Positions 14,289-35,422 of a stretch of 36,500 nt of DNA are shown one piece after another. The notes beneath the pieces were generated by a model. It saw nothing but the letters and a program-made list of their open reading frames with translations, did no database searches and was not told where the DNA came from. Position 1 is the stretch's first letter; each line of letters starts with the position of its first letter. The translations under genes were made by a program, and so were the position numbers. The DNA is taken from the NCBI GenBank assembly GCA_964412115.1, contig CAYPMM010000007.1, forward strand, positions 1-36,500, given 5' to 3'. The DNA is from an uncultured Candidatus Saccharibacteria bacterium. GTDB lineage: Bacteria; Patescibacteriota; Minisyncoccia; HO2-45-28.

Positions 14289-14289
14289 A

Positions 14290-16143: not shown

Positions 16144-16158
16144 AAATTAAATTAAAAT

Positions 16159-16731: not shown

Positions 16732-16733
16732 TT

Positions 16734-17138
16734 ATGCGCCAATTTTCAGTTCCGCAATTCATAGAAGTAGAAGACAAAATTTTCGGGCCGCTTACGCTCA
16801 AGCAGTTTATTTATCTGCTTGGAGGAGGGGCATCCGTATTTATAATTTATGTTTTCGGAGGGATGCTGGGCGTTATTTTTCTCGGCCTGCCGATTGCGGT
16901 TTTTGCGGCAGCGCTCGCTTTTTATAAAATAAACGGCCAGCCCTTTATAAACATAGCGGCAAGCGCCGTATCTCACTACAGCAAATCAAAACTTTACATT
17001 TGGAAAAGGGTTGAGACAAAAAAACAAGACATCCGTAAAATTCCGGCCCTTGAACAAAAACTGGTCCTGCCGAAAATCACCGAAAGCAAATTAAGAGACC
17101 TGTCCTGGTCTTTAGACGTAAAAGAAAAAATAAAATAA
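16734..17138 (+). CDS. PrgI-family (VirB3-like) membrane protein
   Basis: 134 aa. The N-terminus FSVPQFIEVEDKIFGPLTLKQFIYL followed by two TM helices is typical of PrgI/VirB3-like proteins. Confidence 0.65.
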   Translation: MRQFSVPQFIEVEDKIFGPLTLKQFIYLLGGGASVFIIYVFGGMLGVIFLGLPIAVFAAALAFYKINGQPFINIAASAVSHYSKSKLYIWKRVETKKQDIRKIPALEQKLVLPKITESKLRDLSWSLDVKEKIK

Positions 17139-17140
17139 GC

Positions 17141-17794
17141 ATGGCCAAAGCACAATCATCGCAAGAATTCGTTCCGATAAAAGAAATACGCGACGGGATA
17201 ATGATTACCGACGACGGAAATTTGCATATGGTTTTGATGGCCTCCTCCCTGAATTTCGCCCTTCGCTCCGGGGAAGAGCAGGAGGCAGTCACGGCCCAAT
17301 ACCAGAATTTTTTAAACTCGCTGGATTTTTCGGTCCAAATCATGATTCAGTCGCGCCGGCTTAATATTGACCCGTATCTTGAAACCTTGCGCCAGGCCGA
17401 AAAAGAGCAGACAAACGAGCTGATGAAAATTCAGACCCGCGAATACGTGGAATTCGTGCGCACTTTCGTCTCAACCACCAAAATCGTCACCAAAAGTTTT
17501 TACATTGTGGTTACATTTGTCCCGCCTTTTTTGGGGATAGGCAAAAAGGAGGGTTTCGGAGGATTTTTTAAAAAATTTTTCACCGGTGAAAAAAAAGAGG
17601 ACAAACAGATAATGGACGAAAAGTTTGAAGAATACCGGACACAGCTTTGGCAAAGGGCCGAAACGGTCTCGGGCGCCATCGCTTCAACCGGAGTCAGAAC
17701 CGCGCCTTTAAACACCGAGGAATTGGTCGAGCTTTTTTACGGGCTTTTCAATCCTGGGGAACTGGAACGCGGACACGCTCCGCAAGTTAGATAA
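17141..17794 (+). CDS. Hypothetical protein resembling the N-terminal non-ATPase region of VirB4/TrsE proteins
   Basis: 217 aa. The pattern FVPIKEIRDGIMITDDGNLHMVL...YQNFLNSL resembles VirB4 N-domains. The next gene starts 1 nt after its stop. Confidence 0.45.
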   Translation: MAKAQSSQEFVPIKEIRDGIMITDDGNLHMVLMASSLNFALRSGEEQEAVTAQYQNFLNSLDFSVQIMIQSRRLNIDPYLETLRQAEKEQTNELMKIQTREYVEFVRTFVSTTKIVTKSFYIVVTFVPPFLGIGKKEGFGGFFKKFFTGEKKEDKQIMDEKFEEYRTQLWQRAETVSGAIASTGVRTAPLNTEELVELFYGLFNPGELERGHAPQVR

Positions 17795-17795
17795 T

Positions 17796-19616: not shown

Positions 19617-19618
19617 AA

Positions 19619-19996
19619 ATGGCCGAACAAAATCAAATTGAAAACGAGCGCGCTTTAAATCTTTTGGAATCGCGGAAAAACGGCGGCTCCGCGGAAAAAA
19701 ACGCGCCCGCGGGCTCAAACGTGGGAAAGTCCGAATTCGGACTGATGGTTGGTTTTGCTTCGTTTTGCGATTTAATTAGCCAGATACCCGGAGTCGGCTT
19801 TATAATAGACGGTATGGCGTGGTTTACGATATTCGCGTGGACCCAGACCCGCGGACTGAAAAAACCTCAAATTTTTCATCTAAGCGGGGCGGGCGGATTC
19901 ATCCCTTTTTTGCCGGCCTATACCGGAATGGTGGTGTTTTTATATTTTTACAATGATAACCCCCAATTCAGGGCGTTTTTCGGAGGAGAAACATGA
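19619..19996 (+). CDS. Small membrane protein, hypothetical
   Basis: 125 aa with 2-3 hydrophobic segments, in the operon. Confidence 0.5.
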   Translation: MAEQNQIENERALNLLESRKNGGSAEKNAPAGSNVGKSEFGLMVGFASFCDLISQIPGVGFIIDGMAWFTIFAWTQTRGLKKPQIFHLSGAGGFIPFLPAYTGMVVFLYFYNDNPQFRAFFGGET

Positions 19997-20997
19997 AAAA
20001 TAAATTTTTATCAATAATAATTTTTCTGGCTTTTCTGGCGGTCTTGCCCGTTTCGGCGCAAGTTGATTTTGGTTTGGACGTGAATAACTTTTTCATTGAA
20101 CTGCGTCCAACCGACGCTCCGGGCCCGAATCAAAATATAACCGCGAGACTTTCAACAACTTCGTTTGATCTCAACGGGGCAAGAATAACCTGGACCCATA
20201 ACGGGAGAGTTTTGGCCCAAGGAACAGGGGTGAGAGAGTATAACTTCACGACCGGCCCTCTTGGCTCAAGAGAAAGACTTGCTGTTTCGGCGACAGACAC
20301 CAACGGATTGCGCCATGACACGGAATTGTCGTTTATCGTCTCCGACATTGCCATGCTGTGGCAAACCGACACTTCAATTCCTTATTGGTATAAAGGCAAG
20401 GCGCTGGCATCTCCAAAGTCGGCTGTGACCGTAAGCGCGTTTCCGGAGTTAATATCGGGCGGAAGAAAAATCCCCTCGTCGGGTTTGATTTTCCGATGGT
20501 CTTTAGATGATGATTTTAAACAATCGCAGTCGGGGACCGGAAAAGACACCTTCCGGTTCGGCGCCGGATTTTCTTCGGGTTTGGCGCATAGCGTAAGTCT
20601 TGAAGTTTCAAATATCGCAGGCGATATAACCGCCAAAAAATCGGTCGGTATAAATATTGGGGACCCAAAAGTTTTAATTTACGAATACGACCCGCTTTTG
20701 GGGACGAAAAACAATTCGGCTTTCGGCGGACAAAGAAGCGGTGTTATTTTTGCCGGGGAGGAAAAATCGTTCATGGCCCATCCGTTTTTCTTTTCGCGGC
20801 AAAACGGAGGAACGGAAAAACTTGAATACTTGTGGGGCGTTAACGGCCGCGACGCCGACCCCGGAGAGCCGTTTAATATATTGCGCCTGAAAACAACCTC
20901 GGACGCTCTGGGTCTGTCAACAATCGGGGTTCTTATAAAAAACACGGCGAACATATTACAAGAAGCAAGGCAAAGTTTTCAAATAGATGTTTTATAA
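19993..20997 (+). CDS. Secreted beta-rich hypothetical protein
   Basis: 334 aa with a signal peptide (AVLPVSAQ). 4-nt overlap with the upstream gene. Confidence 0.55.
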   Translation: MKNKFLSIIIFLAFLAVLPVSAQVDFGLDVNNFFIELRPTDAPGPNQNITARLSTTSFDLNGARITWTHNGRVLAQGTGVREYNFTTGPLGSRERLAVSATDTNGLRHDTELSFIVSDIAMLWQTDTSIPYWYKGKALASPKSAVTVSAFPELISGGRKIPSSGLIFRWSLDDDFKQSQSGTGKDTFRFGAGFSSGLAHSVSLEVSNIAGDITAKKSVGINIGDPKVLIYEYDPLLGTKNNSAFGGQRSGVIFAGEEKSFMAHPFFFSRQNGGTEKLEYLWGVNGRDADPGEPFNILRLKTTSDALGLSTIGVLIKNTANILQEARQSFQIDVL

Positions 20998-21790
20998 AAC
21001 ACTTTACACATTATTAATAATTGTAATAGCGTTCGTTTTTGTCGTCGGACCGGTTTTGGTCTTTGCCGAAACTAGCGCAACGATAGGCGGACAACAACAG
21101 GAAAAGCCGCCGGAAATACCCGCATGGACTACTGCCAAGGGCGGTTTTATAACATTCCTGCAGTGGCTTTTTCCGGTGATGATTGCCGCAGCGGCGGTTG
21201 TCGCCACCCTTTCTATTATATTTGCCGGTTTTCAGTGGATGGCCGGAGCCATCTCGCCTCCGCAGGTGGAAGCAGCCAAAAACCGTATATCGGCCGCCGT
21301 TTTGGGTCTAGCCGTCGCTCTCGGCTCGTGGTTAATTTTGAATACAATAAATCCTGTTTTCACCAACCCAACAGCGCCGGTTGGATTTACGCTCCAATGC
21401 CCCGGCGGAGTATGCCCGAGCTGGACGGATGTTTTGTTTGGAGCGCCTGGCACCGTAGATTTGACACCTAAACCGCTAGGCGACCTTGGGGGCTCCGCTC
21501 AGAAATTCGTTGGATCTCCGGGTGGACAAGAACAAACAAATGCCGCAAACAATTTTGAAAACGTCGTGTGTCCCGGCAGGGGGCAAGAGGCTGTTAAAAA
21601 TCCATCGGGATCAGGCGCTGTGTGTGTTGAACCAACAAATGGCAACACCAAACTAAGAGTAAAACAAATAAACTGCATCAACTCGTACCAGGCGATGGAG
21701 CTTAAAAAATTGGGAATAGTGCAGTCCGCCCCCGAACGGCTTCCTGCGGGATGCGAAAAAATATTAGATGAGTTTGTAGATATCCCATGA
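20987..21790 (+). CDS. TrbC/VirB2-like pilin with a long Cys-containing C-terminal extension
   Basis: 267 aa with a signal anchor plus a two-TM hairpin (..FAGFQWMAG..LGLAVALGSWLILNTINP), followed by about 130 aa containing 6 Cys. Confidence 0.55.
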   Translation: MFYKTLYTLLIIVIAFVFVVGPVLVFAETSATIGGQQQEKPPEIPAWTTAKGGFITFLQWLFPVMIAAAAVVATLSIIFAGFQWMAGAISPPQVEAAKNRISAAVLGLAVALGSWLILNTINPVFTNPTAPVGFTLQCPGGVCPSWTDVLFGAPGTVDLTPKPLGDLGGSAQKFVGSPGGQEQTNAANNFENVVCPGRGQEAVKNPSGSGAVCVEPTNGNTKLRVKQINCINSYQAMELKKLGIVQSAPERLPAGCEKILDEFVDIP

Positions 21791-22950
21791 ACAAACCACT
21801 TGCCATCGGACTTATAATCTTCTTCATACTCGTAATCGCCGGCGGGGCGGTTTGGCTTGCGGTAAGGCCGGAACAGGAAGTTGAAACAACGGAGCGCGGA
21901 GCGATTTTGAGATTTCCGTTCGGGCTATTCGGGGGCGGGGAGGAAGAGACGCCTACAATAACAACCCCGACAACGACGGAGCCAGAGGAAAAACCGGCTC
22001 TTTTGCTTCTTGACTCCGGACCGGTTGAAAGCTTTGCCATAACCAAAAACGGCGTAAGATACGTTTTAAAACAAGACGGTCACGTCTCCAACATCGGACC
22101 CAGAGGAGAGGAACAAACACGCGTATCTAACACCACCATCACCGGAATTTTTGATGCCGCATGGTCTTCAGATGCGTCAAAAACAATTCTCAAATATTTA
22201 GAAGGCGGAAACATAAGAACGGTATCGGCTGAATTCGTATCAACTTCAACCAGGGCGGTTGTCCTCCCGCAAAACATAATCTCATTTTCTTTCGCTCCAA
22301 ACCAAGACCGTATCGCTTATCTTATTCCGACATCGGCCGGCGCCCGGCTTATTACTGCAAATACCGACAACACGAAACAAACCGAGCTCGCAAATCTGCC
22401 GTTTAAAGATTTTGATATATTCTGGCCGGAAAACAACTTCACATATTTCTTAAGCCGTCCTTCCGGCTCGGCCGGGGGCTTCCTTTTTAAATACGGCATT
22501 TCAAGCGGAGCTCTGGACAAAATCCTGGACAATTTAGCCGGACTGCAAATAAAGTTTTCGCCCGACGGACAAAAACTTGTTTATTCGGCATTTGACGCCC
22601 AATTTCAGCAGTCTCGCCTGTTTATTTACGATATTAAATCAAAAGAGGCGTCTAATCTGCAAACACCCGGACTTGCCGGTAAATGCTCTTTTTCGGCAAG
22701 CGGAAAAAACAAAATTTATTGCGGGCTTGACCGCAATCCCGCGCCGGCCGTCTATCCTGACGACTGGATGCAAGGCTCCGTATCAACGAATGACCTGTTT
22801 TGGGAAATTGACCTTGTAACCGGCCGCAGAGAACAGCTAACCGACCGCGGATTTGATATAAAACAGACGGAGTTATCCGAAGACGGCCGATTTATTTATT
22901 TCTTAGAAAAAAATAACGGCTCTTTATGGAGCCTGAAAATTAGCGATTAG
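21787..22950 (+). CDS. Membrane-anchored TolB-like PD40 beta-propeller protein
   Basis: 387 aa with an N-terminal TM helix and PD40-like repeats (FSPDGQKLVYSA, LSEDGRFIYF). Confidence 0.6.
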   Translation: MNKPLAIGLIIFFILVIAGGAVWLAVRPEQEVETTERGAILRFPFGLFGGGEEETPTITTPTTTEPEEKPALLLLDSGPVESFAITKNGVRYVLKQDGHVSNIGPRGEEQTRVSNTTITGIFDAAWSSDASKTILKYLEGGNIRTVSAEFVSTSTRAVVLPQNIISFSFAPNQDRIAYLIPTSAGARLITANTDNTKQTELANLPFKDFDIFWPENNFTYFLSRPSGSAGGFLFKYGISSGALDKILDNLAGLQIKFSPDGQKLVYSAFDAQFQQSRLFIYDIKSKEASNLQTPGLAGKCSFSASGKNKIYCGLDRNPAPAVYPDDWMQGSVSTNDLFWEIDLVTGRREQLTDRGFDIKQTELSEDGRFIYFLEKNNGSLWSLKISD

Positions 22951-24896: not shown

Positions 24897-26258
24897 ATGA
24901 CCAACGAAGAGCTTTGGAGGGAAATCCTCGGTGAATTGGAATTGACGGTTTCAAAAGCCAATTTCGCGACATGGTTTCAAAATACTTTCATTGCCGACCA
25001 GTCAGAAGGAAAAATAACCGTAGGAACGCCCTCGGCTTTCGTCAAAGAATGGCTTGAAGATAAATATCAAAAAAATATCCTAAGATTCCTGCGTCTGCGC
25101 TCTCCCGAGGTGCGCTCGGTGGAATTTAGAATAGCGTCAAAAGAAGCTCCCCAGAACAAAAAAACGGCCGAAACCCGGCCGGCGGAGGAACAAATGGATT
25201 TCCGCGAAATATACACCGACCGCGAAACCAATCTCAATCCCCGCTATACCTTTGATAATTTTATTGTCGGCGTATTCAACGAACTGGCGCATGCTTCGGC
25301 TTTGTCGGTGATAAATAATCTCGGAACTCTCTATAATCCGCTTTTTATCTACGGCGGCGTTGGGCTGGGCAAAACCCACCTTATGCAGGCGATAGGGAAT
25401 AAAATAAAATCCGGCCGGCCGGACAAAAAAGTCTTCTATTTAAGCGCCGAGAGGTTCGCCAATGAGCTGGTGTCGGCCATCAGAAACAACGAAACCGGAT
25501 TTTTTAAAGATAAATACCGATCCTACGATGTTATGATCCTTGACGACATCCAATTCATATCAAGCCGCGGAGCATCCACTCAGGAAGAAATCTTCCACAC
25601 TTTCAACACGATGTATCAGGCAAACAAGCAGATAATATTTTCTTCAGACCGGCCGCCGAAATCAATTTCCAACATAGAAGACCGGCTTAGGTCGCGTTTT
25701 GAGGGCGGAATGATAGCCGACATAGCCGAGCCTGACTATGAAACACGGCTGGCAATACTTCAGTCAAAAGCTGCCGAAAAACAGGAATACCGTCCGTCTC
25801 TTGAGGTATTGGAACACATAGCCGCGAGCGTTCAGTCCAACATAAGAGAGCTTGAGGGTTCGCTTAATTCCATAATAGCGAGATCAAAAATCAGAAAACG
25901 GCCGTTGGGATTGCCGGAGGTTAAAGAAATACTAATTAAAAACGAGAAACCGAAAAAGACTTTAAGCGCCCAGCAGATAATAAGGAAAATCGCCCAGTTT
26001 TACGAGATACCCGAAAAAAATCTTTTTGAAAAAACAAGAAGAAAAGAGGTGGTCAAACCAAGGCAAATAGCGATGTATCTTTTGCGTGAAGACTTTAACG
26101 GTTCTTTTCCTTATATCGGCAAGAAGTTCGGGGGACGCGACCACACGACAGCTATACACGCTTACGCTAAAATAACCGGCGATTTAAAAAAGGACGACCG
26201 ATTAAAAGAGGAAATGAAAATAATCAGAAACCAATTATATGAAGAAGAAAAACAGTGA
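24897..26258 (+). CDS. dnaA: Chromosomal replication initiator DnaA
   Basis: 453 aa with AAA+ Walker A GGVGLGKTHL and a C-terminal DnaA-box binding domain. Confidence 0.97.
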   Translation: MTNEELWREILGELELTVSKANFATWFQNTFIADQSEGKITVGTPSAFVKEWLEDKYQKNILRFLRLRSPEVRSVEFRIASKEAPQNKKTAETRPAEEQMDFREIYTDRETNLNPRYTFDNFIVGVFNELAHASALSVINNLGTLYNPLFIYGGVGLGKTHLMQAIGNKIKSGRPDKKVFYLSAERFANELVSAIRNNETGFFKDKYRSYDVMILDDIQFISSRGASTQEEIFHTFNTMYQANKQIIFSSDRPPKSISNIEDRLRSRFEGGMIADIAEPDYETRLAILQSKAAEKQEYRPSLEVLEHIAASVQSNIRELEGSLNSIIARSKIRKRPLGLPEVKEILIKNEKPKKTLSAQQIIRKIAQFYEIPEKNLFEKTRRKEVVKPRQIAMYLLREDFNGSFPYIGKKFGGRDHTTAIHAYAKITGDLKKDDRLKEEMKIIRNQLYEEEKQ

Positions 26259-26470
26259 TTAACTTTCGGAAATCCTGTGAAAAAAACCGTTTATGATTAA
26301 ACCCGTTTGCGGCGAACAAAAATAATTAAGGTTTTTCTAACTTCTTATCCACAAAAAACCGGTAAATATTTTTAATAAAAACAGTTTAAAAATAGGGCTT
26401 AAAATGTTTTTTCCACCTATTCACACCGATAACTACTTCAACAATTTATTAAATTAAATAAAATTATTAT
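26259..26470. promoter_or_regulatory. Candidate oriC segment (dnaA-dnaN spacer)
   Basis: Perfect TTATCCACA at 26345-26353, CTATTCACA at 26417-26425, and a very AT-rich stretch around 26360-26470. Confidence 0.5.
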
Positions 26471-27586
26471 ATGGAGTTAGCCTGTGTTAAGAACCAAATC
26501 CAAAAAAGTTTTCAGCTGGCCGACAGATACACCAATCAAACGGATATAAATCCGGTTTTAAACGGGATATTTTTAAAAGCGGAAAAAAACAGCCTGCTTA
26601 TAAGGTCAACCGACCTGTACAGCGGTTTTGAAACAAAAATACCGGCGCAGGTAAAAAAAGAAGGAGAGTCGGTTGTTCCGGCAAAACCGATTATTTCGGT
26701 TTTATCTTCAATAAACGACGAAAAAATAAATCTGGAGTCAAAAGACGGGAGTTTGTATCTTACGACAAAAAATACCTCGACAAATTTAAAAACATACAGT
26801 CACGAGGACTTTCCAAAATTGCCTAAAATAAAAAACGGGCAAAAAATAATTTTTTTTTTTTTTTTACTTTTTAAAAATTTAAAAAATGTTTTTTTCGCCG
26901 CGGCATCATCGGACATAAAACCCGAAATATCGTCTATTTTATTTTCAGCTGGAAACGCGAAAAGCAAACCTGATGGCGGACTGAAAATAGCCGCGACCGA
27001 CTCCTTCCGCTTAGCCGAAAAATCTTTCGGAGCTAATTTTGAAAAAACAGGTTCTTTTCTTTTTCCGGCTAAATCCGCGGCCGGATTTATTAAAATTCTT
27101 GAGAATTTTGACGGCGAAGTCGAAGTCGGTTTTGACGAACATCATCTTTTTGCTTTCCACCCCTCTTTTTCGTATTTTACGAGGTTAATTGAGGGAAACT
27201 TTCCGGAGTATGAACAAATAATACCCTCGTCTTTTATAACCGAAGCCGCGGTTTCAAAAAAAGAACTTATTGAAAATCTTAAACTAGCCGGAGTATTTTC
27301 GGGGCGTCTTAAAGAAATAAAAATGCGCGTTCATCCGGGAGATAATTTGCTTGAAATAATGACCAGCGACGGCGAATTCGGCGAGAACAACAGCCAGATG
27401 CCGGCGCAAGTCACCGGTGAAAATCTGGAGATATCTTTTAACCAGAGATATCTGCTGGAGGGGCTTGAACAGGTAAGTTCGGACGGCGTTATCCTGCGCT
27501 TTTCGGGACCGAACCGTCCGCTTCTCATCCAAAACCCAAGGGACGTTTCTTATTTGTATCTGGTAATGCCGATGAAAAATTCGTAA
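26471..27586 (+). CDS. dnaN: DNA polymerase III beta sliding clamp
   Basis: 371 aa with three-domain clamp-like sequence and the conserved position after dnaA. Contains a T16 tract at 26850-26865. Confidence 0.92.
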   Translation: MELACVKNQIQKSFQLADRYTNQTDINPVLNGIFLKAEKNSLLIRSTDLYSGFETKIPAQVKKEGESVVPAKPIISVLSSINDEKINLESKDGSLYLTTKNTSTNLKTYSHEDFPKLPKIKNGQKIIFFFFLLFKNLKNVFFAAASSDIKPEISSILFSAGNAKSKPDGGLKIAATDSFRLAEKSFGANFEKTGSFLFPAKSAAGFIKILENFDGEVEVGFDEHHLFAFHPSFSYFTRLIEGNFPEYEQIIPSSFITEAAVSKKELIENLKLAGVFSGRLKEIKMRVHPGDNLLEIMTSDGEFGENNSQMPAQVTGENLEISFNQRYLLEGLEQVSSDGVILRFSGPNRPLLIQNPRDVSYLYLVMPMKNS

Positions 27587-27595
27587 TTTTTAGCG

Positions 27596-27868
27596 ATGTC
27601 TTTTAAACGGATTTTTGAGTTTTTAAATAAATTCGAAAACATAAAAAACCACGGCAATAACGTGGAAATGAAGGTAGCTGAATGGTGTTTAAAAAAAACC
27701 GGCCTGTCTTTAAAAGACATAAACGTGAAGGTCCGGCGTCCCAATATCATTATTTCAACCAAAAACGCTTCGGCTAAAACCGCTATTTTTACCGCGCAAA
27801 ATTCTCTTTTTGAAGAATTAAAAAACAAATTCGGCTCAAGCGCGCCGGATAAAATTATTTTTAAATAA
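27596..27868 (+). CDS. DUF721/DciA-like small protein
   Basis: 90 aa. Its position after dnaN and its C-terminal pattern (..IIISTKNASAKTAIF...LKNKFG...IIFK) resemble DUF721. Confidence 0.5.
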   Translation: MSFKRIFEFLNKFENIKNHGNNVEMKVAEWCLKKTGLSLKDINVKVRRPNIIISTKNASAKTAIFTAQNSLFEELKNKFGSSAPDKIIFK

Positions 27869-27869
27869 A

Positions 27870-30431
27870 TTATTTTAAGCCGATTTCTTTTTCCAAAGAA
27901 GAGCTGTTGCCGACCGCGTCGTAAATATTTACCACCAGTTTTTCCCGCACGTTAAGGTCTTTTATTTTCGACAGGTCAATTGAAAAGAAATACGGCGGAT
28001 TTTTAACCGATCCCAAAAATCTGTTTCCGAAAATAACATCCATCTGGCTTACGCCGAACCGGGCCGAGGCGGATACGGAAAACGGAATTAATCCCGAATA
28101 CGAAGTTTCATCCGGAGGCGGAACCAGAAAAGAAATTTTAGGCGCGTATTCCGGAAGATGAATATCGTCCAGTTTCAAAGGAATGTCTTTTTCATCCTCT
28201 TCCGGCATATTTTTGGATTGCGCCCAGAGCTTCACCGGATATTCCCACAAAGAAAATTGCGAGTCTGCCGACGGGTTGTCCGGAATCGGGCCGTCGGGGT
28301 TGTTTTTATCAAGCCAGTAAAGAATAGAGTGTATTTGAACCAAAGGTTTTTCTTCCCGGTATTGCTGGGGGGTGTAAATGGTCGCCAATTTTCCCGATAT
28401 TTTATCAACAGAGTAAGTCTTGCTTCCTCTCCATTCGCTTTTAAGGACCGCTTTTCGCGCCAAACTTGCCGAAGGTGGCGCGAATTCTTTTTTTTCAAGC
28501 GTTTTCGACGCCTCCTGGAAAAAGGCGTTCCAAAGGGGCGCGGCGATGAATCCGGCAACGCTTTTGACCATTTCCGAGTTGTCGTTGTTTCCGAACCACA
28601 CGCCCCAGGCCAGATTCGGCGTATAGCCGACGACCCAGGCGTCTCTTGAGTCGTTGGTTGTTCCTGTTTTTGCCGCCACGTCCCAGCCCGGAAAATAAAG
28701 AGGCGAACTCAAACCGAAACCCGGAGCCCTCGCGTCGTTATCCGAGAGGACGTCGTTTATAAGGCGCGCCGTTTGAGCGTCCAAGACCTCTTCGGGACCG
28801 GGACGGAATTCCTCAAGGACTCTTCCTTTTGAGTCTTCCACCCGAAGTACCGCGGTTAGAGGGTTTCTTACTCCTTCGTTTGCGAATACCGAGTAGGCCC
28901 CGACCATTTCAAGCAATTTAACTTCTCCTCCGCCCAAAACAAGCGACAGTCCGTAGCGGTCGGAGTCGGCAAGGGTGGTTATGCCCATAGACTTGGCGGT
29001 TTTCAATGAATCGCCGACTCCGGCAAGATACAAAGTTTTTACCGCCGGAATATTTATTGACTGCGCCAGCGCCTCGCGCAAAGTTATGGGTCCGCGAAAA
29101 ACGCCGTCATAATTTCTTGGATGGTAGCAGGAGTCTTTTTTTTCTTCGGATGATTTTTCTTCTTCCGCCAAAACTTTAGCCGCGTCCATGTCGCAGGAAG
29201 GGTTGAACTCGGTCGGAAGGTCAAAGACCGCGGTTTCCGGCGTGTAGCCCTTTTTAAAAGCGGTAGCGTAGACAAAAGGCTTGAAAGCCGAACCCGGCTG
29301 CCGGCCCAAAGCGTAAGCGGTTACGTTTACGTGCGGTTCAAATTTGCAGTTAAGCCCCGGAGCGCATCCTTCGGGCTCCGGGTCCGAAAACCAGTCTTTT
29401 GATCCGACCATCACCAGTATCTGGCCGTTTGACGGGTCGGTTGCGACCAGCCCCGCGTTATAAACGTCAAATTTTTCTTCCTCATCTTCAACGAATTTTT
29501 TTGTCAGCTCCTCGGCTTTCTGCTGTAAGTTCCAGTCAAGCGAGGTAATGACTTTAAGTCCGCCCGATTCCACGGCGTCTTCTCCGTATTTTTCGGTGAG
29601 ATAGTCCCGGACATAAAATATAAAATGAGGGGCTTTAAGAGTTTCGTTGCCTCTGGGGACAAATTCAACCGTTTCGGCCATGGCTGTATTCATCTCCTCT
29701 TCATTTATAAAATTCAAATCAAACATTCTTTTTAAGACCAGATTTTTTCTTTCGTCCAACTCTTTCTTGTGCGATCCGTAAGGAGAATAAAATGTCGGAG
29801 CATTGGGTAAAGAAACCAAATAAGCCGATTCGGCCAGCGTTACATCCTTTAATTTTTTACCAAAAAACGTTTCGGCGGCAGCCGCAATGCCGTAGGCCGA
29901 TGAACCGTAGGGTATTTCGTTTAGATAAAATCCCAAAATTTGGTCTTTTGCAAACACCCGCTCAACTTTAAGCGCCAGCACCAGCTCTTTCAGTTTGCGG
30001 CTGATTGTTTTTTCATCGGTCAAAAGAGCTTTTTTGACCAATTGCTGGGTTATGGTTGAACCCCCCTGCAGGGCTCCGCCGTAAACCGCGTTCACAAAAG
30101 CCGCGCGCGCGATTGCAAGCGGTCTTACGCCGCGGTGGTTATAAAAATTAGAGTCCTCCATCGCCACGGTCGCGTTTCTGACACTTGGCGGTATTTCGGC
30201 AAGGTCCACGACCGTCCTGCGGATGTCGTTATGTATGTCGTAGAGAAGAACGTTTTCGGAGCGGTCGTAGATTTTGGTTGATTGTATCACTTTGCGGGAG
30301 TCGAAAGATTCAAAGTCCGGTATATCAAGCGTGAGCGCCCAAACCGAAAACGCGCCGACAAGAAATACCAAAACAAGCCCGTATATCAAACGCCTTTTTG
30401 CCTTTTTTGAGAGTTTAGTTTCCCTTGCCAT
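27870..30431 (-). CDS. ponA: Class A penicillin-binding protein (GT51 transglycosylase + transpeptidase) with a C-terminal extension
   Basis: 853 aa with EDSNFYNHRGV, GGSTITQQL, SAFKPF (SxxK), SIN and KTGTT. Confidence 0.95.
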   Translation of the reverse strand: MARETKLSKKAKRRLIYGLVLVFLVGAFSVWALTLDIPDFESFDSRKVIQSTKIYDRSENVLLYDIHNDIRRTVVDLAEIPPSVRNATVAMEDSNFYNHRGVRPLAIARAAFVNAVYGGALQGGSTITQQLVKKALLTDEKTISRKLKELVLALKVERVFAKDQILGFYLNEIPYGSSAYGIAAAAETFFGKKLKDVTLAESAYLVSLPNAPTFYSPYGSHKKELDERKNLVLKRMFDLNFINEEEMNTAMAETVEFVPRGNETLKAPHFIFYVRDYLTEKYGEDAVESGGLKVITSLDWNLQQKAEELTKKFVEDEEEKFDVYNAGLVATDPSNGQILVMVGSKDWFSDPEPEGCAPGLNCKFEPHVNVTAYALGRQPGSAFKPFVYATAFKKGYTPETAVFDLPTEFNPSCDMDAAKVLAEEEKSSEEKKDSCYHPRNYDGVFRGPITLREALAQSINIPAVKTLYLAGVGDSLKTAKSMGITTLADSDRYGLSLVLGGGEVKLLEMVGAYSVFANEGVRNPLTAVLRVEDSKGRVLEEFRPGPEEVLDAQTARLINDVLSDNDARAPGFGLSSPLYFPGWDVAAKTGTTNDSRDAWVVGYTPNLAWGVWFGNNDNSEMVKSVAGFIAAPLWNAFFQEASKTLEKKEFAPPSASLARKAVLKSEWRGSKTYSVDKISGKLATIYTPQQYREEKPLVQIHSILYWLDKNNPDGPIPDNPSADSQFSLWEYPVKLWAQSKNMPEEDEKDIPLKLDDIHLPEYAPKISFLVPPPDETSYSGLIPFSVSASARFGVSQMDVIFGNRFLGSVKNPPYFFSIDLSKIKDLNVREKLVVNIYDAVGNSSSLEKEIGLK

Positions 30432-30518
30432 TTAGCGTTTATATTATCTTATTTTTGCGAGTTTTTCAACACCGGCCATATAAAACCCACCCAAATACCG
30501 ATATTTAACCAAAACAAA

Positions 30519-30544
30519 CGGCCAAATCAGTGATTTAGCTGTTT
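30519..30544 (+). repeat. Left copy of the 26-bp imperfect direct repeat
   Basis: CGGCCAAATCAGTGATTTAGCTGTTT, matching 33999-34024 at 23 of 26 positions. Confidence 0.85.
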
Positions 30545-30610
30545 GTTTAGTTTTCCCCATGTTGTAAAAACGGGTTAGATTTCCCGCTTTTTTAGAGTCA
30601 TAATTAAGTT

Positions 30611-31789
30611 ATGAAGAAGAAGCAGTTTGGCCAATTTTTTACTAGGGAAGCCGACCACATTTTTAGTGGATTAGAAAAATACATAAAGGGCAAAAAAGCA
30701 ACAGACCCATTTGCTGGTGCTGGCGACTTATTAAATTGGGCCAAGAAAAATGGTGCAAATAAAATCGTTGGCTATGATGTTGATCCAACGTACGCCAACT
30801 CTAAAAAAATAGTTTTGAATGATTCACTTTTGGCTCCAAAAAAATATTCTTTCGTGATTACGAATCCTCCGTACCTGAATATAAATAAAGCCGACAAGAT
30901 TACGAAAGAGCGTTATTTCAATAATTTTGAATATGAAGATTTATACCAGATTTCTTTGGCGTCAATCATGGATAGCGACGAGGGCATTGTTATTGTGCCC
31001 ATTAACTTCTTATCTGCTGAAAATTCAAGAAAAATACGAGACAGATTTTTCGGCAAGTTCAGAATAGTTGAAATGAATTATTTTAAAAACCAGGTCTTTT
31101 CGGACACGACCTATAATGTAATAGCGTTTTATTATAAGAAAAAAAGAAACACCCTTGACGATTCTTTTATTATTAACTGCCGTATTTTTCCCGACAGGCA
31201 GAAGATTAAAATAAAACTGGAACAGAAATTTCATTGGACCATTGGCGGAAACGATTTAATCCAAATTGAAAAACAAAGAAACACCCTGGGTATTCACAGA
31301 CTAGTTGAAAACGACTTAGAATCAGGGAGTTGTATTATAAAAGCCGCCCACAACCACATCAAAACCGTTAGGGAATATAGGGTTTCGGGCCCACTGCGCG
31401 ATTCCATTAAAGAGAACCTGATTTTGCTTAGGGCTATTGACAGCGGGACACCCGAGGGTAAAATCCGCCTCGAAAATATAAAAAAATACGGCGTTGACTG
31501 TTTGGTCAGCAAAGAAAGCTCCAGAAATATGATATATTTATTGTTTGAAAAGAGATTGTCCCTGGATGAGCAAGAAAAAATAATCGAGACTTTTAACGAG
31601 GAAATCGGCAAACTACGAAAAGATTATTTCTCGCTTTTTTTGACGAATTTCAGAGATAATGACAGAAAAAGGATTTCATTTGACTTTGTCTACAAATTTA
31701 TTAATTATTTGTATTTCAGTAAGATAAATTATGACGCAGAAAGGCAAATCAGCTTATTACCAATGAGACAATATGAACAAGTGGGTTAA
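30611..31789 (+). CDS. N6-adenine DNA methyltransferase (motif I before NPPY)
   Basis: 392 aa with DPFAGAGDL (FxGxG) and VITNPPY. Confidence 0.85.
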   Translation: MKKKQFGQFFTREADHIFSGLEKYIKGKKATDPFAGAGDLLNWAKKNGANKIVGYDVDPTYANSKKIVLNDSLLAPKKYSFVITNPPYLNINKADKITKERYFNNFEYEDLYQISLASIMDSDEGIVIVPINFLSAENSRKIRDRFFGKFRIVEMNYFKNQVFSDTTYNVIAFYYKKKRNTLDDSFIINCRIFPDRQKIKIKLEQKFHWTIGGNDLIQIEKQRNTLGIHRLVENDLESGSCIIKAAHNHIKTVREYRVSGPLRDSIKENLILLRAIDSGTPEGKIRLENIKKYGVDCLVSKESSRNMIYLLFEKRLSLDEQEKIIETFNEEIGKLRKDYFSLFLTNFRDNDRKRISFDFVYKFINYLYFSKINYDAERQISLLPMRQYEQVG

Positions 31790-32561
31790 AAAAAGTATTA
31801 AGCTGGCAAGTGGACGCGGCTATTTGGACAAACTTTCAAAAGTTTATCCGGTTTCGGTAAACGTTGCGCGCAAGTTAAGCGTTGCGGAACAAAAAAGGAT
31901 TAAGACCGCTTTTTCAAAAAGAGATGGCAAATTACTAATTACAACTTTGTTGGATTTTAAACGCTTTCCTGTGGACGACCCGTACATCGGTTTTTTGCGC
32001 AGAGATAAGTCGGCCATTGATCGCAATCCTAAAACCGTTAAACGTATAAGCAACCACTTATTTAAAATAGGGATTGAGGGAATTATAAGCGGAATTCAGC
32101 GGCCGAAATCTTCTTCCAGGCAATTTGGGCAATATTTTAGAAATTATCTCAATGGACTGGGATACCCGGTGCTTACCGACGCGAATTTTATAAAAGCGAA
32201 GGGCGTTGCGGTTTTAGCCGGTGGCGACGCTTCTCTTAAGAAATTCGCAAAAACACATCTGGGTTATCGCGAGAAAAAAGGGTTGGACCTGGTTTTTAAA
32301 AAGGGCGATAAATTTTTTATTGGCGAGGCAAAGTTTATAAGCGCAAGCGGCGGAACGCAGGACAAAAGTTTTCGTGAAACGATGGGGTTTATTAAAAATA
32401 GAAGTGCGGGGGCGCAACACATAGCAGTTCTTGACGGTGTAGTTTGGGCAGCTTCAAATAATGTGCGCGGCAAGAATCTCTATGACGATGTCCGGAAGCT
32501 CTCGGAGGGGAAACTGGTAATGAGCGCGTTATTGTTGAAAAAGTTTATTAAAAAGATCTAG
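31773..32561 (+). CDS. Probable type II restriction endonuclease (PD-(D/E)xK-like)
   Basis: 262 aa, overlapping the MTase gene by 17 nt. GLDLVF...FIGEAKF resembles a D...ExK catalytic motif. Confidence 0.5.
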   Translation: MNKWVKKSIKLASGRGYLDKLSKVYPVSVNVARKLSVAEQKRIKTAFSKRDGKLLITTLLDFKRFPVDDPYIGFLRRDKSAIDRNPKTVKRISNHLFKIGIEGIISGIQRPKSSSRQFGQYFRNYLNGLGYPVLTDANFIKAKGVAVLAGGDASLKKFAKTHLGYREKKGLDLVFKKGDKFFIGEAKFISASGGTQDKSFRETMGFIKNRSAGAQHIAVLDGVVWAASNNVRGKNLYDDVRKLSEGKLVMSALLLKKFIKKI

Positions 32562-32673
32562 CCTCGGATTTATCTAAAAACCGATCAAATCACCGATTGG
32601 CCTGTTTGTGTGCCCTCCACCCATTGTTTTTAATAGATTTTAGCGTTATTATTTTTTATAAATAGAATTACTT

Positions 32674-33165
32674 ATGATCGAGATTGCGTCCTATTTCACA
32701 AGTATTTTTATAGAACACCAGAGGTTGTTCTGGTCCTTTATTATTGGTGCCACCGGATCCGCCGCATATTTTACCGCTCTGTACTTTAAATTTGTCGGAT
32801 ACACCGATGCTCATCGCAATATTATAATTGAACCGTTCCGCAAGACCAATGATTACTTTTTCAATAGGATATCTGGGTGGAAGGTGCTCTGGTATTGTTG
32901 CGTTGGGGGCGCCATCTCTCTTATTTTTCAGATAAGCACTCCGCAATTGGTGGCTATACAGGGCTTTATACTGGGCGCGGCTTGGCCGAGCGTAGTTTCT
33001 CAATATTTATCAGGCAGAATGGGGAAACTATCAGACGAGGAGGCAGATGAAATAGGAATAAACGAGGTCCAAAGAGATTTGGGGGAACCTGCCAACAAAA
33101 ACAAGAAAACGGATTCAGAAACGATTACAAGATTAGAGAATATGCGAAAAAAAGATGATATTTAA
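32674..33165 (+). CDS. Hypothetical multi-pass membrane protein with a charged C-terminal tail
   Basis: 163 aa with 3-4 hydrophobic helices, AT-rich. Confidence 0.5.
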   Translation: MIEIASYFTSIFIEHQRLFWSFIIGATGSAAYFTALYFKFVGYTDAHRNIIIEPFRKTNDYFFNRISGWKVLWYCCVGGAISLIFQISTPQLVAIQGFILGAAWPSVVSQYLSGRMGKLSDEEADEIGINEVQRDLGEPANKNKKTDSETITRLENMRKKDDI

Positions 33166-33631
33166 AGAATTATTAAAAAAACCCGCAGCGTTGATATCAG
33201 AAAACAATATCGTAAAAGATATAGTTATTGATAACGATAATGCGAGTATAATACTTGACAGGCTCGGAGAAAAAAAAGAGGATTTCTCTGAATTTTTTAT
33301 GGTTTATCTGGACGAAGATGGTCGTGTCAAGGCGGTTATGGCGGAGAAAGACGTGAGTTCTCTTTTGATTATTGTTGAAAAACTGCTCAAAAATAAGAAG
33401 TTAGACACCGAAAAAATAAAAGATATGAAATTGACAGAGTCGTTTCCATTAGACAAAAGAATTTTTGTTAAACGCAGTGACGAATTATTAAAAGTATTAG
33501 AAGTTTTTAGAAATAAGGACATTTCTACAGATGTTGTTATTATTGTGGACGAGTCAGATGCATATGCGGGGAAAATTAGGAGAAAAAGTCTATTAAAAAA
33601 GATCGATTCTTTATTAAATCAAAACAAATAA
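33155..33631 (+). CDS. Hypothetical protein, CBS-pair-like
   Basis: 158 aa with two segments of CBS-like pattern (..FFMVYLDEDGRVKAVMAEKDV.. and ..DVVIIVDESDAYAGKIRRKSLL..). 11-nt overlap with the upstream gene. Confidence 0.4.
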   Translation: MIFKELLKKPAALISENNIVKDIVIDNDNASIILDRLGEKKEDFSEFFMVYLDEDGRVKAVMAEKDVSSLLIIVEKLLKNKKLDTEKIKDMKLTESFPLDKRIFVKRSDELLKVLEVFRNKDISTDVVIIVDESDAYAGKIRRKSLLKKIDSLLNQNK

Positions 33632-33677
33632 AACCCTCTTTCTTATTCTAAAAAAGAATATTATAAAAAACAAACCC

Positions 33678-34013
33678 ATGGATAACCTTTTAATTTTTAT
33701 TTTTGGCGCGATTGTCGGCGGGGTTGCGGTTTGGGTGTGGATGAAAAATGAAAAAGCAGAGTCGGAAGCAGAAAACAAAATTGGCGGAATTTTGGGGGTG
33801 AATGTCCGGAGGCAAAGCGAAAAGGAGCAAAATAAGGAAAAAATTTTGGGAATGTTCGCGGCGAAAAAGGATATAACAAACGACGATGTTGAAAATTCTC
33901 TTGGTGTCTCTGACGCCACGGCCACAAACTATTTAAATGAACTAGAACAGGAGGGCAAAATTGAACAAGTCGGCCAAACCGGCCGAGGCGTATTTTATCG
34001 GCCAAATCGCTGA
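33678..34013 (+). CDS. TM-anchored winged-helix DNA-binding protein
   Basis: 111 aa with an N-terminal TM helix and a C-terminal wHTH-like segment ITNDDVENSLGVSDATATNYLNELEQEGKIEQVG. Confidence 0.55.
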   Translation: MDNLLIFIFGAIVGGVAVWVWMKNEKAESEAENKIGGILGVNVRRQSEKEQNKEKILGMFAAKKDITNDDVENSLGVSDATATNYLNELEQEGKIEQVGQTGRGVFYRPNR

Positions 34014-34024
34014 TTTAGCCGTTT
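33999..34024 (+). repeat. Right copy of the 26-bp imperfect direct repeat
   Basis: CGGCCAAATCGCTGATTTAGCCGTTT. It overlaps the last codons and the stop of the wHTH gene. Confidence 0.85.
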
Positions 34025-34069
34025 TGGGAGTCTATCCACAGGCAGAAAATTTAATGCTATCCTTTAAAA

Positions 34070-35269
34070 ATGGCGGATTTTTTAAGTGATAAATTAAACG
34101 AAAAAATATCGCGGCTTTCGGAGGAAATAATAACCAAAGGCGAGCTTCTAAGCCGGCTGAAATCGGGCAAAAAACTGCGGATAAAATACGGGGTTGATGT
34201 TACCTCGCCCTTTTTGCATCTGGGGCACGCGGTTAATTTGTGGCTTATGCGCGCTTTTCAGGAAGAGGGACACAAGGTTGTTTTTCTTGTGGGCGACTTT
34301 ACGACCAAGATAGGCGATCCGACGGGAAGGGACGAGGCGCGTAAAAAAATTTCGGACGCCGACATAAAAAAAGGAGCGAAAGAATTCATAAAACAGGTTT
34401 CTAAAATTCTTTTGACCGGCAAGAAGGTTTTTGAAATACGCAAAAACTCCGAGTGGTATTCAAAAATGAGCGCGAAAGAACTCACCGAACTTTTGTCTCT
34501 TTTCACCAACGCCCAGCTGATTAAGCGCGACATGTTTCAGGAAAGAATAAAAAAAGACATTGAAATTTACGAGCACGAGCTGATATATCCCATTTTGCAG
34601 GGCTACGATTCGGTAATGCTCAAATCCGACCTGACGGTCATCGGTTCGGACCAGCTTTTTAACGAGATGAGAGGCAGGGACTTGCAGGAAAAATTCGGGC
34701 AAGAGCGGCAGGTCATTATTACCACCAAAATCACCCCGGGGATACGCGGAGGAGAAAAACAGTCAAAAAGTTTGGGGAATTACATCGGCCTTTCCGACTT
34801 CGCCCGCGAAAAGTTCGGCAAAATCATGAGCATGCCCGATGGCCTGATAGTTAAATATTTTGAGGTTTATAGCGACGTCGCGCTTTCTCGGATAAAAGAA
34901 ATTGAGCGAGGAATTTCTAAAAAAACATTAAACCCGAAAGATGCCAAAATGGAATTGGCCGAAGCCATAGTTTTAAAATACCACGGCAAAAAAGAAGCCG
35001 ATGAAGCCAAAAGTTTTTTTGTGAGCACTTTCCAGAGAAAAGAATTGCCTGAAGGAATCGGAGTTTTTACCGCCGAAAAAGGAAGTGCCGTAAAAAACAT
35101 TCTTGTCGCGTCCAAAATGGCTCCGTCCAATTCGGAAGCGGTCCGCCTTATTAAAGCCGGAGCCGTTGAATTTGACGGAGAACGTATTGGAGATATTCAC
35201 GAAAAAATATTAAAAGACGGGGTCTTGCGCGCGGGAAAAAAACGCTTTGTGAAAATTAAAATAAAATAA
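34070..35269 (+). CDS. tyrS: Tyrosyl-tRNA synthetase
   Basis: 399 aa with HIGH-type HLGH, KMSKS-type KQSKS and a C-terminal S4-like domain. Confidence 0.93.
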   Translation: MADFLSDKLNEKISRLSEEIITKGELLSRLKSGKKLRIKYGVDVTSPFLHLGHAVNLWLMRAFQEEGHKVVFLVGDFTTKIGDPTGRDEARKKISDADIKKGAKEFIKQVSKILLTGKKVFEIRKNSEWYSKMSAKELTELLSLFTNAQLIKRDMFQERIKKDIEIYEHELIYPILQGYDSVMLKSDLTVIGSDQLFNEMRGRDLQEKFGQERQVIITTKITPGIRGGEKQSKSLGNYIGLSDFAREKFGKIMSMPDGLIVKYFEVYSDVALSRIKEIERGISKKTLNPKDAKMELAEAIVLKYHGKKEADEAKSFFVSTFQRKELPEGIGVFTAEKGSAVKNILVASKMAPSNSEAVRLIKAGAVEFDGERIGDIHEKILKDGVLRAGKKRFVKIKIK

Positions 35270-35305
35270 CCAAAACCCGCCGAAGAGGCGGGTTTTGGTT
35301 ATTTT
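35263..35305. terminator. Bidirectional terminator hairpin
   Basis: 19-bp perfect stem AAAATAACCAAAACCCGCC / GGCGGGTTTTGGTTATTTT with a GAAGA loop, overlapping the tyrS stop. Confidence 0.85.
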
Positions 35306-35422
35306 CTATTCTTCTTCCGGTTCTTCCTCGTCGCCGGTCATCTCTTTGGGCATTTCCTCATCTGCTTCGTCTTCTTCCGTGTCTTCGGCGCGAAGATATG
35401 AATTATCGTCTTGGTAAAGCAT
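35306..35422 (-). CDS. Possible 38-aa highly acidic micro-ORF
   Basis: Translation MLYQDDNSYLRAEDTEEDEADEEMPKEMTGDEEEPEEE. The stop abuts the terminator stem. No SD and no homology recognised. Confidence 0.25.
   Translation of the reverse strand: MLYQDDNSYLRAEDTEEDEADEEMPKEMTGDEEEPEEE

Follow-up and report, generated by a model that had tools for sequence, protein, structure and literature searches.

A foreign restriction-modification islet between ponA and tyrS of a Patescibacteria genome and the dispersed terminator-like palindromes that it carries

Patescibacteria have tiny genomes with few recognisable mobile elements, and are thought to rely on DNA uptake. The closest described counterparts of the locus reported here come from three directions. 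Restriction-modification (R-M) systems have been sorted into categories that include the mobile unit flanked by repeats and allelic substitution (Furuta et al., PMC2853133), the cargo of Escherichia coli defence hotspots is mostly found on recognisable mobile elements with integrases (PMC10121019, PMC10250203), and the uptake signal sequences (USS) of Neisseria and Pasteurellaceae occur paired as terminator stems (Kingsford et al. 2007, PMC1852404). The locus lies between ponA and tyrS in a stretch of 36.5 kb, hereafter the window (positions 1 to 36,500 of contig CAYPMM010000007.1, assembly GCA_964412115.1, from an uncultured member of the Patescibacteriota). It is a foreign R-M and defence islet in a hotspot bounded by two essential promoters, and the repeats close to its ends belong to a dispersed family of palindromes that are built like terminators, and are not att duplicates.

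The original prediction, read from the window, had described five genes of an AT-rich islet bounded by two 26-bp direct repeats, and had taken the arrangement for an att-type duplication left by site-specific insertion. The insertion is borne out by the relatives (Candidatus Niyogibacteria-type loci anchored on TyrS, which mark the host as a Candidatus Niyogibacteria-like Parcubacterium), given that ponA and tyrS are adjacent, 57-80 bp apart, in L017, L004 and L005, whose TyrS is 88%, 82% and 74% identical to that of the window. The duplication is not borne out, because these empty sites hold no copy of the repeat, either on inspection or with a covariance model of the repeat family, where a single copy had been anticipated, and because the repeats do not bound the islet. 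Homology to L017 and L003 stops at 30470 and restarts at 34055 (blastn), with just 4 nt between the corresponding points in L017. The insert set by this comparison covers 30471-34054 (3,584 bp, no strand), with 48 bp at the left and 30 bp at the right between its edges and the repeats. No target-site duplication or terminal inverted repeats were seen at 30471 and 34054 on inspection by eye.

Both edges fall on promoters. The left edge abuts the -35 of the ponA promoter found by a consensus scan (TTGAAA-17-TAATAT, 30441-30469, minus strand), whose conserved flank is the left limit of the variable region, and the string 'tttttcaac' precedes the insert in the window, L003 and L019 alike. The right edge abuts the conserved extended -10 of tyrS (TGCTATCCT, 34055-34063, plus strand), which is kept in the window, L003, L004, L017, L019 and L109 and forms the right limit. 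The tail of the islet (34034-34054, plus strand) carries a putative substitute tyrS -35 (TCCACA at 34035-34040); it is common to the filled sites L019, L109 and L110 and is not present in the empty ones. The flanking genes are ponA (27870-30431, minus strand) and tyrS (34070-35269, plus strand).

Five open reading frames (ORFs) are found between the two 26-mers, as predicted, in two putative transcription units on the plus strand. The first has a putative promoter at 30575-30604 (TTAGAT-18-CATAAT) and holds an N6-adenine DNA methyltransferase (MTase; 30611-31789, 392 aa, NPPY motif, GC 0.355), which matches the Eco57I-type methylases of Pfam (PF07669, E 5.5e-8) and MTase_II of PADLOC, and for which an exact-protein look-up returned no record elsewhere. 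Its ORF overlaps that of the downstream restriction endonuclease (REase; 31773-32561, 262 aa), which matches the Tsp45I-family type II enzymes over its full length (PF06300, E 3.1e-64; PADLOC REase_II, E 7.6e-54). By gene content the two are a Tsp45I-family type II R-M pair. The Tsp45I site, GTSAC, occurs 12 times in the window against 21 expected, a mild avoidance that is too weak as evidence for specificity. Over the whole window GGTAC (1 against 8.2 expected) and GTTAC (5 against 13) are both strongly under-represented.

The second unit has a putative promoter at 32633-32662 (ATAGAT-18-TATAAA) and begins with a 163-aa membrane protein (32674-33165), which has no match in Pfam, PADLOC or NCBIfam. 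It is followed by a 158-aa CBS-pair-like protein (33155-33631, GC 0.308; Pfam CBS, E 7.5e-4; NCBIfam CbpB-like, E 1.5e-5, under the curated cut-off). Three homologues of the membrane protein are found in 5.8 billion proteins, with a CBS-like gene after each, and the pairing is thus kept in L111, L112 and L113; the pair may be an unrecognised defence or toxin module. A small GIY-YIG gene adjoins the pair in two of these three other contigs, and no hairpins of the repeat family were found around the homologues in L111-L113.

The unit closes with a 111-aa protein (33678-34013) that combines an N-terminal transmembrane helix with a winged helix-turn-helix (wHTH; Pfam HTH_24, E 1.7e-5) and belongs to a family of 81 members. 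Its AlphaFold model (pLDDT 75) has a long N-terminal helix or helical linker and then the winged helix, and its best PDB matches are ArsR/SmtB- and MarR-type repressors. The right repeat overlaps the last codons and the TGA of this gene, as had been noted, and the relatives account for it. In them the ORF ends in ...KNG-TAA within the 5' arm of the hairpin, whereas in the window, where the alignment with L019, L109 and L110 places a deletion of 11 nt (GCAAAAAACGG), it ends in ...RPNR-TGA by read-through. The loss of these 11 nt shifted the stop, which explains the overlap.

The absence of an integrase or transposase between the repeats was also correctly predicted: Pfam, PADLOC and NCBIfam find no recombinase or transposase domain in the five ORFs, and Pfam finds neither in the other window ORFs of at least 100 aa that were scanned. 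The islet DNA has no match in phage and plasmid collections. Its composition is foreign to the window, as the prediction had it, with 38.0% GC against 47.0% for the remainder and, when composition is plotted along the window as had been proposed, the highest tetranucleotide deviation (0.334, typical values being 0.13-0.20). The GC shift is uneven among genes: those for the MTase (z -3.1) and the 158-aa protein (z -4.5) are strong outliers, while the REase, membrane protein and wHTH genes are merely -0.8 to -1.3 standard deviations off the mean, and tyrS itself has 43.6% GC.

The point between ponA and tyrS has been filled in different ways. L003 (TyrS 85% identical) has a different insert of 603 bp (9383-9985) at the same point; this insert lacks hairpins and a wHTH gene, and its single 128-aa minus-strand ORF has no Pfam match. 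The 5.8 kb inserted in L019 encode LexA, a type I-like MTase, HEPN, CHAP and HsdS; there is a hairpin at either end, and the last gene is a wHTH gene 87% identical to that of the window. In L109 and L110, where TyrS is 51.5% identical to that of the window over 200 aa, the joint is arranged as in the window (wHTH gene, hairpin, 30 nt, tyrS), and in L109 a Tsp45I-type REase lies directly upstream of the wHTH gene, the two being 73% and 77% identical to those of the window. The wHTH gene is absent in all four nearest relatives (L017, L004, L003 and L005). Islet genes that are far more alike than TyrS and that are absent from the nearest relatives constitute the standard signature of horizontal transfer.

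The left part of the islet appears less stable than its right end. Given that L109 lacks both the membrane and CBS-like pair and the internal hairpin (copy 2, see below), the pair with its hairpin and promoter head is a secondary addition or loss. In L110 (61-486) an in-frame fusion joins the 5' part of a NYN-domain gene to the last two-thirds of the wHTH gene, so that the membrane helix is lost; downstream of this fusion the sequence is identical to L109. The fusion shows how fast the DNA on the left changes beside a right end that stays constant.

Some further observations concern this locus in other sequences. In the empty site of L004, CTGAAAAAACAAAGTTTTC was considered as a hairpin scar; this is unsupported, and the sequence is better read as the tyrS -35 (CTGAAA) and its spacer. 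Exact look-ups of TyrS and PonA returned only short Logan contigs that end at the islet edges. That with an identical TyrS (L001) begins with a Nextera adapter (AGATGTGTATAAGAGACAG, positions 1-19) followed by the last 70 nt of the wHTH gene, and that with an identical PonA (L002) ends 24 nt upstream of ponA; such breaks could reflect strain heterogeneity or trouble in assembling the hairpins. In Candidatus Azambacteria, comparison of two strains, L086 (2990-4308) and L114 (15018-16308), shows ponA and ruvC/yebC to be 88% identical and tyrS to be without nucleotide homology, which indicates that there the tyrS gene itself was replaced. The TyrS of L086 is just ~32% identical to the Niyogibacteria TyrS.

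The repeats themselves proved to be of another nature than predicted. The two 26-mers (CGGCCAAATCAGTGATTTAGCTGTTT, 30519-30544, and CGGCCAAATCGCTGATTTAGCCGTTT, 33999-34024) are indeed alike at 23 of 26 positions, and a degenerate pattern for both, with up to 3 mismatches, hits no other place in the 36.5 kb, where shuffled sequences give an expectation of 0.00. The same pattern also matches the first copy on the minus strand. For the core CAAATCNNNGATT, 0.2 occurrences are expected in the window and three are present, all within the islet. The palindromy of the repeat, a third and degenerate copy at 32576-32609 and the offset of the insertion edges were not part of the original prediction. The general form of the element is an A-tract, CGGCYAAATC-NNN-GATTTRGCCG and a T-tract, and none of its copies is assigned to a strand.

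Copy 1 is a 47-nt palindrome (30507-30553, core 30519-30541) with 23-nt arms that are 83% complementary. As RNA it folds at -16.2 kcal/mol on the plus strand (z -5.1) and -18.9 on the minus strand (z -5.3), and it scores 58 bits with the family model (E 3e-11). Copy 2, between the REase stop and the next operon, is 74% identical to copy 1, has lost the fold (z -0.4) and is undetected by the family covariance model. Copy 3 (33987-34033, core 33999-34021; 34 bits, E 4e-5) has one C.A mismatch on the plus (coding) strand and a clear fold on the minus strand alone (z -2.6); it is homologous to a perfect 16-1-16 palindrome after the wHTH gene in L019. With its promoter, copy 2 aligns to copy 1 and its promoter as a 107-nt unit reaching to the ATG, with 68/104 positions identical and a score of 20, against -12.6 +/- 5.3 (maximum 14) in 2000 shuffles and at most -1 for other gene-upstream regions. 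By this alignment the copy 2 unit is a diverged paralogue of the copy 1 unit. The hairpin-to-ATG spacing is 69 nt in both, and 65-79 nt in many family members.

The differences among the copies bear on their origin. Their central triplets are AGT, ACC and GCT, and two of the three mismatches between copies 1 and 3 fall in this loop. The resulting AGT and GCT belong to the two commonest loop types of the family (ACT/AGT in 23 copies, AGC/GCT in 47) and, therefore, look like pre-existing variants and not like divergence after a duplication. The outer arms of each copy pair with each other and not with the partner copy. Neither these self-paired arms nor the loop differences fit a target duplication or a crossover within the palindrome.

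With the covariance model no further family copy was found in the remaining 33 kb of the window. The possibility that a wHTH pseudogene remnant lies upstream of copy 1 was rejected, as the match is merely 7 nt long (ACCGGCC). The convergent gap between tyrS and ruvC (35251-35317) contains an inverted repeat with 31-nt arms (AAAATAACCAAAACCCGCC...GGCGGGTTTTGGTTATTTT) that overlaps the tyrS stop and scores 17.9 bits with the family model. This tyrS terminator has an A-tract, stem and T-tract like the islet hairpins and a different stem, which suggests that such an arrangement is the usual terminator design in this genome.

A metagenome collection was scanned with the pattern CGGCYAAAWCNNYGATTTAGCYRTTT, for which ~0.2 chance hits are expected by our own estimate, and 85 stretches matched. 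Their 92 hairpins represent ~65 distinct contexts after flank clustering. Nearly all the matches are perfect palindromes made of an A-run, CGGCTAAATC, three variable bases, GATTTAGCCG and a T-run, with the family consensus AAAAAAACGGCTAAATC-NNN-GATTTAGCCGTTTTTTT. The original prediction had named a common dispersed repeat unrelated to island borders as a finding that would speak against it; common and dispersed the element is, but unrelated to such borders it is not, given that pairs of it bracket cassettes elsewhere. The neighbouring proteins fall into 97 clusters, including HU, EF-P, TypA, DprA, YebC, UDG and RpiB-like proteins as well as R-M genes. The palindrome family is dispersed in Parcubacteria, at least in Candidatus Azambacteria-like genomes, with one or more of the hairpin-bearing contigs belonging to Candidatus Azambacteria (L086), and in GC the hairpin loci (median 39%) resemble the islet. 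Neither the hairpin nor anything else in the window matches an Rfam family, and the pattern has 0 matches in viral contigs.

Gene position and base pairing both point to a terminator. For the 60 copies with both neighbours within 350 nt, 21 lie between convergent genes, 33 between tandem genes and 6 between divergent genes, so that 54 (90%) are at a 3' end; in the window this applies to copies 2 and 3 and not to copy 1. Several hairpins are located 8-80 nt downstream of tRNA genes. The outer stem shows compensatory changes, with ...AAATAAA/TTTATTT... in 14 copies and ...AAAAAAA/TTTTTTT... in 55 (pair 9-39: AU 55, UA 14), and this covariation exceeds that of all 500 shuffles and all slid controls. 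Copy 1 and the copies in L019 fold strongly (z -4.2 to -5.7). The architecture of the family is, as far as can be read from these sequences, that of a bidirectional intrinsic terminator.

A 21-kb Azambacteria origin region (L114) contains no family copy, and in 309 kb of Niyogibacteria-type and other relatives the covariance model finds the element beside wHTH genes alone (window, L019, L109 and L110). L105 and L108 have variant hairpins beside distant wHTH homologues (44-45% identical) and keep AAACGGCT...AGCCGTTT. The hairpin and the wHTH gene form a block of ~410 nt that is 79-88% identical over at least 5 contexts.

Several other features were observed in the hairpin-bearing loci. In L024 (318-386) an Rfam match to DUF3800-IX RNA (50.9 bits, over the gathering score) is the sole non-tRNA/rRNA match in the related loci. 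In L025 (259-2713; also in L031 and L040) an rRNA operon includes a family hairpin; it lies between tRNA-Ile/tRNA-Ala and a preceding LAGLIDADG-type ORF, which either interrupts the 16S gene or comes after it. Other dispersed palindromes adjoin the hairpins in Azambacteria-like L024, L037, L042, L043, L062, L065, L073 and L104. One group has 45-60-nt hairpins with a CGATCG-containing loop (e.g., AAAATGCATGTTT...CCGATCGG...AAACATGCATTTT), and another is a module of ~100 nt (CACAAGATATTTATATTTGCTTTCGAGCGGGTTATGAGCCCG...). Comparison of L062 with L026 suggests that the CGATCG element inserts beside the terminator hairpin.

Around the islet, the window also encodes rnpA-yidC-jag, dnaA, dnaN and ruvC, which places the islet ~4 kb from dnaA-dnaN and the replication-origin region. 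A second AT-rich and tetranucleotide-deviant stretch (26001-27868) comprises the dnaA-dnaN spacer, dnaN (GC 0.40) and a 90-aa ORF (27596-27868; GC 0.34, z -3.5), and probably represents the origin region; an unusual string, IIFFFFLLF, occurs in the translated DnaN. Upstream of jag-yidC-rnpA-dnaA, a large cluster (11713-22950; also 1-8198 of L114) holds PrgI-like, TraC-like and VirB4/TraG-P-loop genes together with several big unannotated ORFs. Its synteny in Azambacteria suggests a conserved type IV secretion- or pilus-like apparatus, not a mobile element.

The explanation that we favour, and consider probable, is that of a horizontally acquired defence islet in a reused hotspot, with the repeats as copies of a terminator-like family that were carried in with it. 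The space between the back-to-back promoters of ponA and tyrS would have been used repeatedly, in this case by two transcription units, the R-M pair on the one hand and the membrane and CBS-like pair followed by a membrane-anchored wHTH regulator on the other. The hairpins would serve as bidirectional intrinsic terminators or insulators that delimit transcription units. Copy 3 would end the wHTH operon, copy 2 would once have ended the R-M operon and now be decaying, and copy 1 would insulate the divergent ponA promoter from the islet. The copies may have arrived inside foreign blocks, namely the 107-nt hairpin and promoter module and the ~410-nt block of wHTH gene and hairpin. The islet would have entered by DNA uptake and been joined to the chromosome by homologous or illegitimate recombination; ComM-like and RuvC functions are encoded in the window. 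Only joints that leave the ponA -35 and the tyrS -10 intact would have survived selection, with a substitute tyrS -35 coming from the islet tail, and the conserved hairpin and wHTH blocks may have acted as portable homology.

Some observations weigh against this explanation. Copy 1 lies between two divergent starts, where there is no gene to terminate, and copies 2 and 3 are weak RNA hairpins on the plus strand. The invariant 20-nt stem is not needed by a pure terminator and implies sequence-specific recognition or recent copying, although the invariance is partly a product of the search pattern. Moreover, the hairpin loci (415 kb) contain few second copies, and these without exception bracket accessory cassettes, which is not predicted if each operon passively has its own hairpin. 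A terminator function of the hairpins is put forward as a reading of their sequence and position.

These second copies are the basis of a rather unlikely alternative, in which the hairpins would be recombination sites, by analogy with integron attC/VCR cassettes or Xer-dependent dif modules, and accessory and defence cassettes, in many cases with the wHTH gene as their last gene, would be inserted, excised or swapped at resident hairpins by an enzyme acting in trans or by RecA, for which the 35-47 bp of identity would be the substrate. All the loci with a second copy, the window and five others, have an accessory cassette between the two hairpins. The L019 pair brackets its 5.8-kb cassette. 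In L065/L042 the order is typA, hairpin, wHTH, LexA-MTase, REase-like, hairpin and dprA, in L051/L077 the pair brackets a DUF4065-like pair with a wHTH gene, in L093, by tRNA-Leu, two XRE-type HTH genes, a REase-like gene, a MTase and a 308-aa protein, and in L104/L062/L037 a 475-aa surface protein. L026 and L035 have tRNA-Gly, one hairpin and HU where L104 has two hairpins with 1.9 kb between them and flanks 91-99.7% identical to L026; a deletion by homologous recombination between two copies, however, explains L026 and L104 equally well. In L052 the switch from UDG-side to wHTH-side homology falls inside the hairpin, the hairpin and wHTH block recurs in its several contexts, and the same islet type is present at the same site in lineages with 51% TyrS identity.

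Against such recombination stand, at this locus, the empty sites without a hairpin and the edges of the insert, which are 36-48 and 30 bp outside the hairpins. Each hairpin is self-complementary, including its private outer arms, with no hybrid-site signature, and the loop or central bases differ between partners. The insert of L104 has one edge that is offset from its hairpin by ~115 nt, the hairpins at most loci can simply be read as terminators of the genes beside them, and no candidate recombinase was found. A fuller version, which we regard as distinctly unlikely, is that Parcubacteria (Azambacteria and Niyogibacteria) have a recombinase-less cassette system served by a hairpin-specific activity in trans. 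The palindrome AAACGGCTAAATC-N3-GATTTAGCCGTTT may then mark cassette borders and double as terminator, the membrane-anchored wHTH gene with its stop in the palindrome may be a conserved cassette end, and the trans activity may move R-M, toxin-antitoxin and other cassettes among resident hairpins and lineages into a few promoter-proximal hotspots. Such a system would be functionally like integron attC cassettes, yet unrelated to them.

Quite improbable is a role of the palindrome as operator for the wHTH protein, acting as an ArsR/MarR-like dimeric regulator, with the hairpin potential being secondary. In size, the perfect 10-3-10 inverted repeat is like the operators of ArsR/SmtB or MarR proteins, the repressor families that the wHTH model matches. 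The hairpin occurs just with wHTH genes in Niyogibacteria-type loci, the distant homologues keep variant hairpins, and the distance to many start codons is fairly constant at 65-79 nt upstream. Nonetheless, 21 copies lie between convergent genes and several right after tRNAs, with no promoter to regulate, and wHTH genes are missing from the vicinity of most family copies. A folded strand accounts better for the A-tract/T-tract extension and for the outer-stem compensation, and a repressor would have to sit closer to the putative -35 than the palindrome in the window does, whose centre is ~45 nt upstream.

It is very improbable that the islet, or the wHTH gene and its hairpin, is ancestral and that the empty relatives are secondary deletions without any horizontal transfer. 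The arrangement of wHTH gene, hairpin and tyrS is common to three lineages (window, L019 and L109/L110), and the left cargo turns over while the right end is constant, as illustrated by the NYN fragment fused into the wHTH gene of L110. This account is opposed by the islet genes being 73-77% alike in the window and L109/L110 against 51.5% for TyrS, by the four nearest relatives all being without the wHTH gene, and by an islet composition unlike that of the host. The original proposal of a site-specific integrative element, with the 26-mers as attL and attR from duplication of an attB, can hardly be right, being already contradicted on three defining features: foreign AT-rich genes do lie between similar 26-mers (23/26), but no integrase is found in the islet or in the scanned window ORFs, the sequence is absent from the empty sites, the boundaries lie outside the repeats, and the repeat is palindromic, with a third internal copy and ~65 unrelated contexts.

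On its own, the horizontally acquired islet represents ordinary biology, a selfish R-M system in an intergenic hotspot, and illustrates the turnover of defence genes in Patescibacteria. The palindrome family was previously uncatalogued (it has no Rfam match) and has a conserved stem, and it can be used to recognise accessory DNA and the borders of transcription units in metagenome-assembled genomes of Parcubacteria. The ~410-nt block of wHTH gene and hairpin recurs at the edges of defence cassettes, and a rare two-gene module, the membrane and CBS-like pair, travels with defence genes. If the hairpin were a recombination signal, a major uncultured radiation would have a gene-cassette mechanism of a new kind.

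When the locus is set beside the described R-M units (Furuta et al., PMC2853133), the likeness is clear: a type II R-M pair between conserved genes, flanked by direct/inverted repeats, with no linked integrase and with relatives that have empty sites. The presence of another R-M type at the same locus (type I-like in L019) resembles in turn the allelic substitution of the same study. In contrast to those units, no target duplication, long or short, is found here, and the islet repeats are a dispersed terminator-like palindrome inside the insert, not a duplicated target nor terminal repeats like those of insertion sequences. The locus is also like the core-gene defence hotspots (Hochhauser et al. 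2023, PMC10121019; Johnson et al. 2023, PMC10250203) in that one intergenic position holds varied defence cargo or is empty. It differs from the E. coli hotspots in that the inserts are of 0.6-5.8 kb, have no mobility gene and occur in a reduced-genome Patescibacterium.

The hairpins, for their part, are like the terminators made of USS or DNA uptake sequences (DUS; PMC1852404), where a sequence-conserved inverted pair is the stem of many intrinsic terminators, and they would also give portable homology. They are unlike USS and DUS in that the copy number looks low and that half-sites are almost never solo: in 415 kb of sequence around the hairpins, 86 palindromes are complete and 3 half-sites stand alone. 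A DNA uptake sequence was rejected because of this scarcity of solo half-sites, and no link of the element to DNA uptake was found. The attC cassettes (Vibrio VCR) and dif modules share with the hairpin loci the recombinase-less cassettes bounded by conserved imperfect palindromes and, at one locus, an empty site with one copy (L026 against L104). Nonetheless, attC was rejected, given that there is no R''/L''/L'/R' organisation and no GTTRRRY/RYYYAAC pair at the arms, that the element is too short, and that the units have their own promoter-like regions and are scattered singly and not in arrays, with no integrase and no Rfam match. Xer/dif was also rejected, as there is no dif-like core, the central triplet is variable, the copies are many and no hybrid arms are seen.

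REP/BIME palindromes can terminate or stabilise transcripts. The hairpin is like them a short dispersed intergenic palindrome, imperfect to perfect and often 3' of genes, and unlike them it has no clustered arrays or conserved 5' tetranucleotide, possesses an A-tract/T-tract extension, and is tied to accessory cassettes and to one wHTH gene. No RAYT/Y1 transposase and no terminal inverted repeats with target duplication were noticed in the examined loci, though no systematic search aimed at these was made. The islet falls in known classes, and the notable points are the uncatalogued hairpin family with its conserved sequence, its tight link with the wHTH gene and its recurrence at the borders of accessory cassettes in Patescibacteria.

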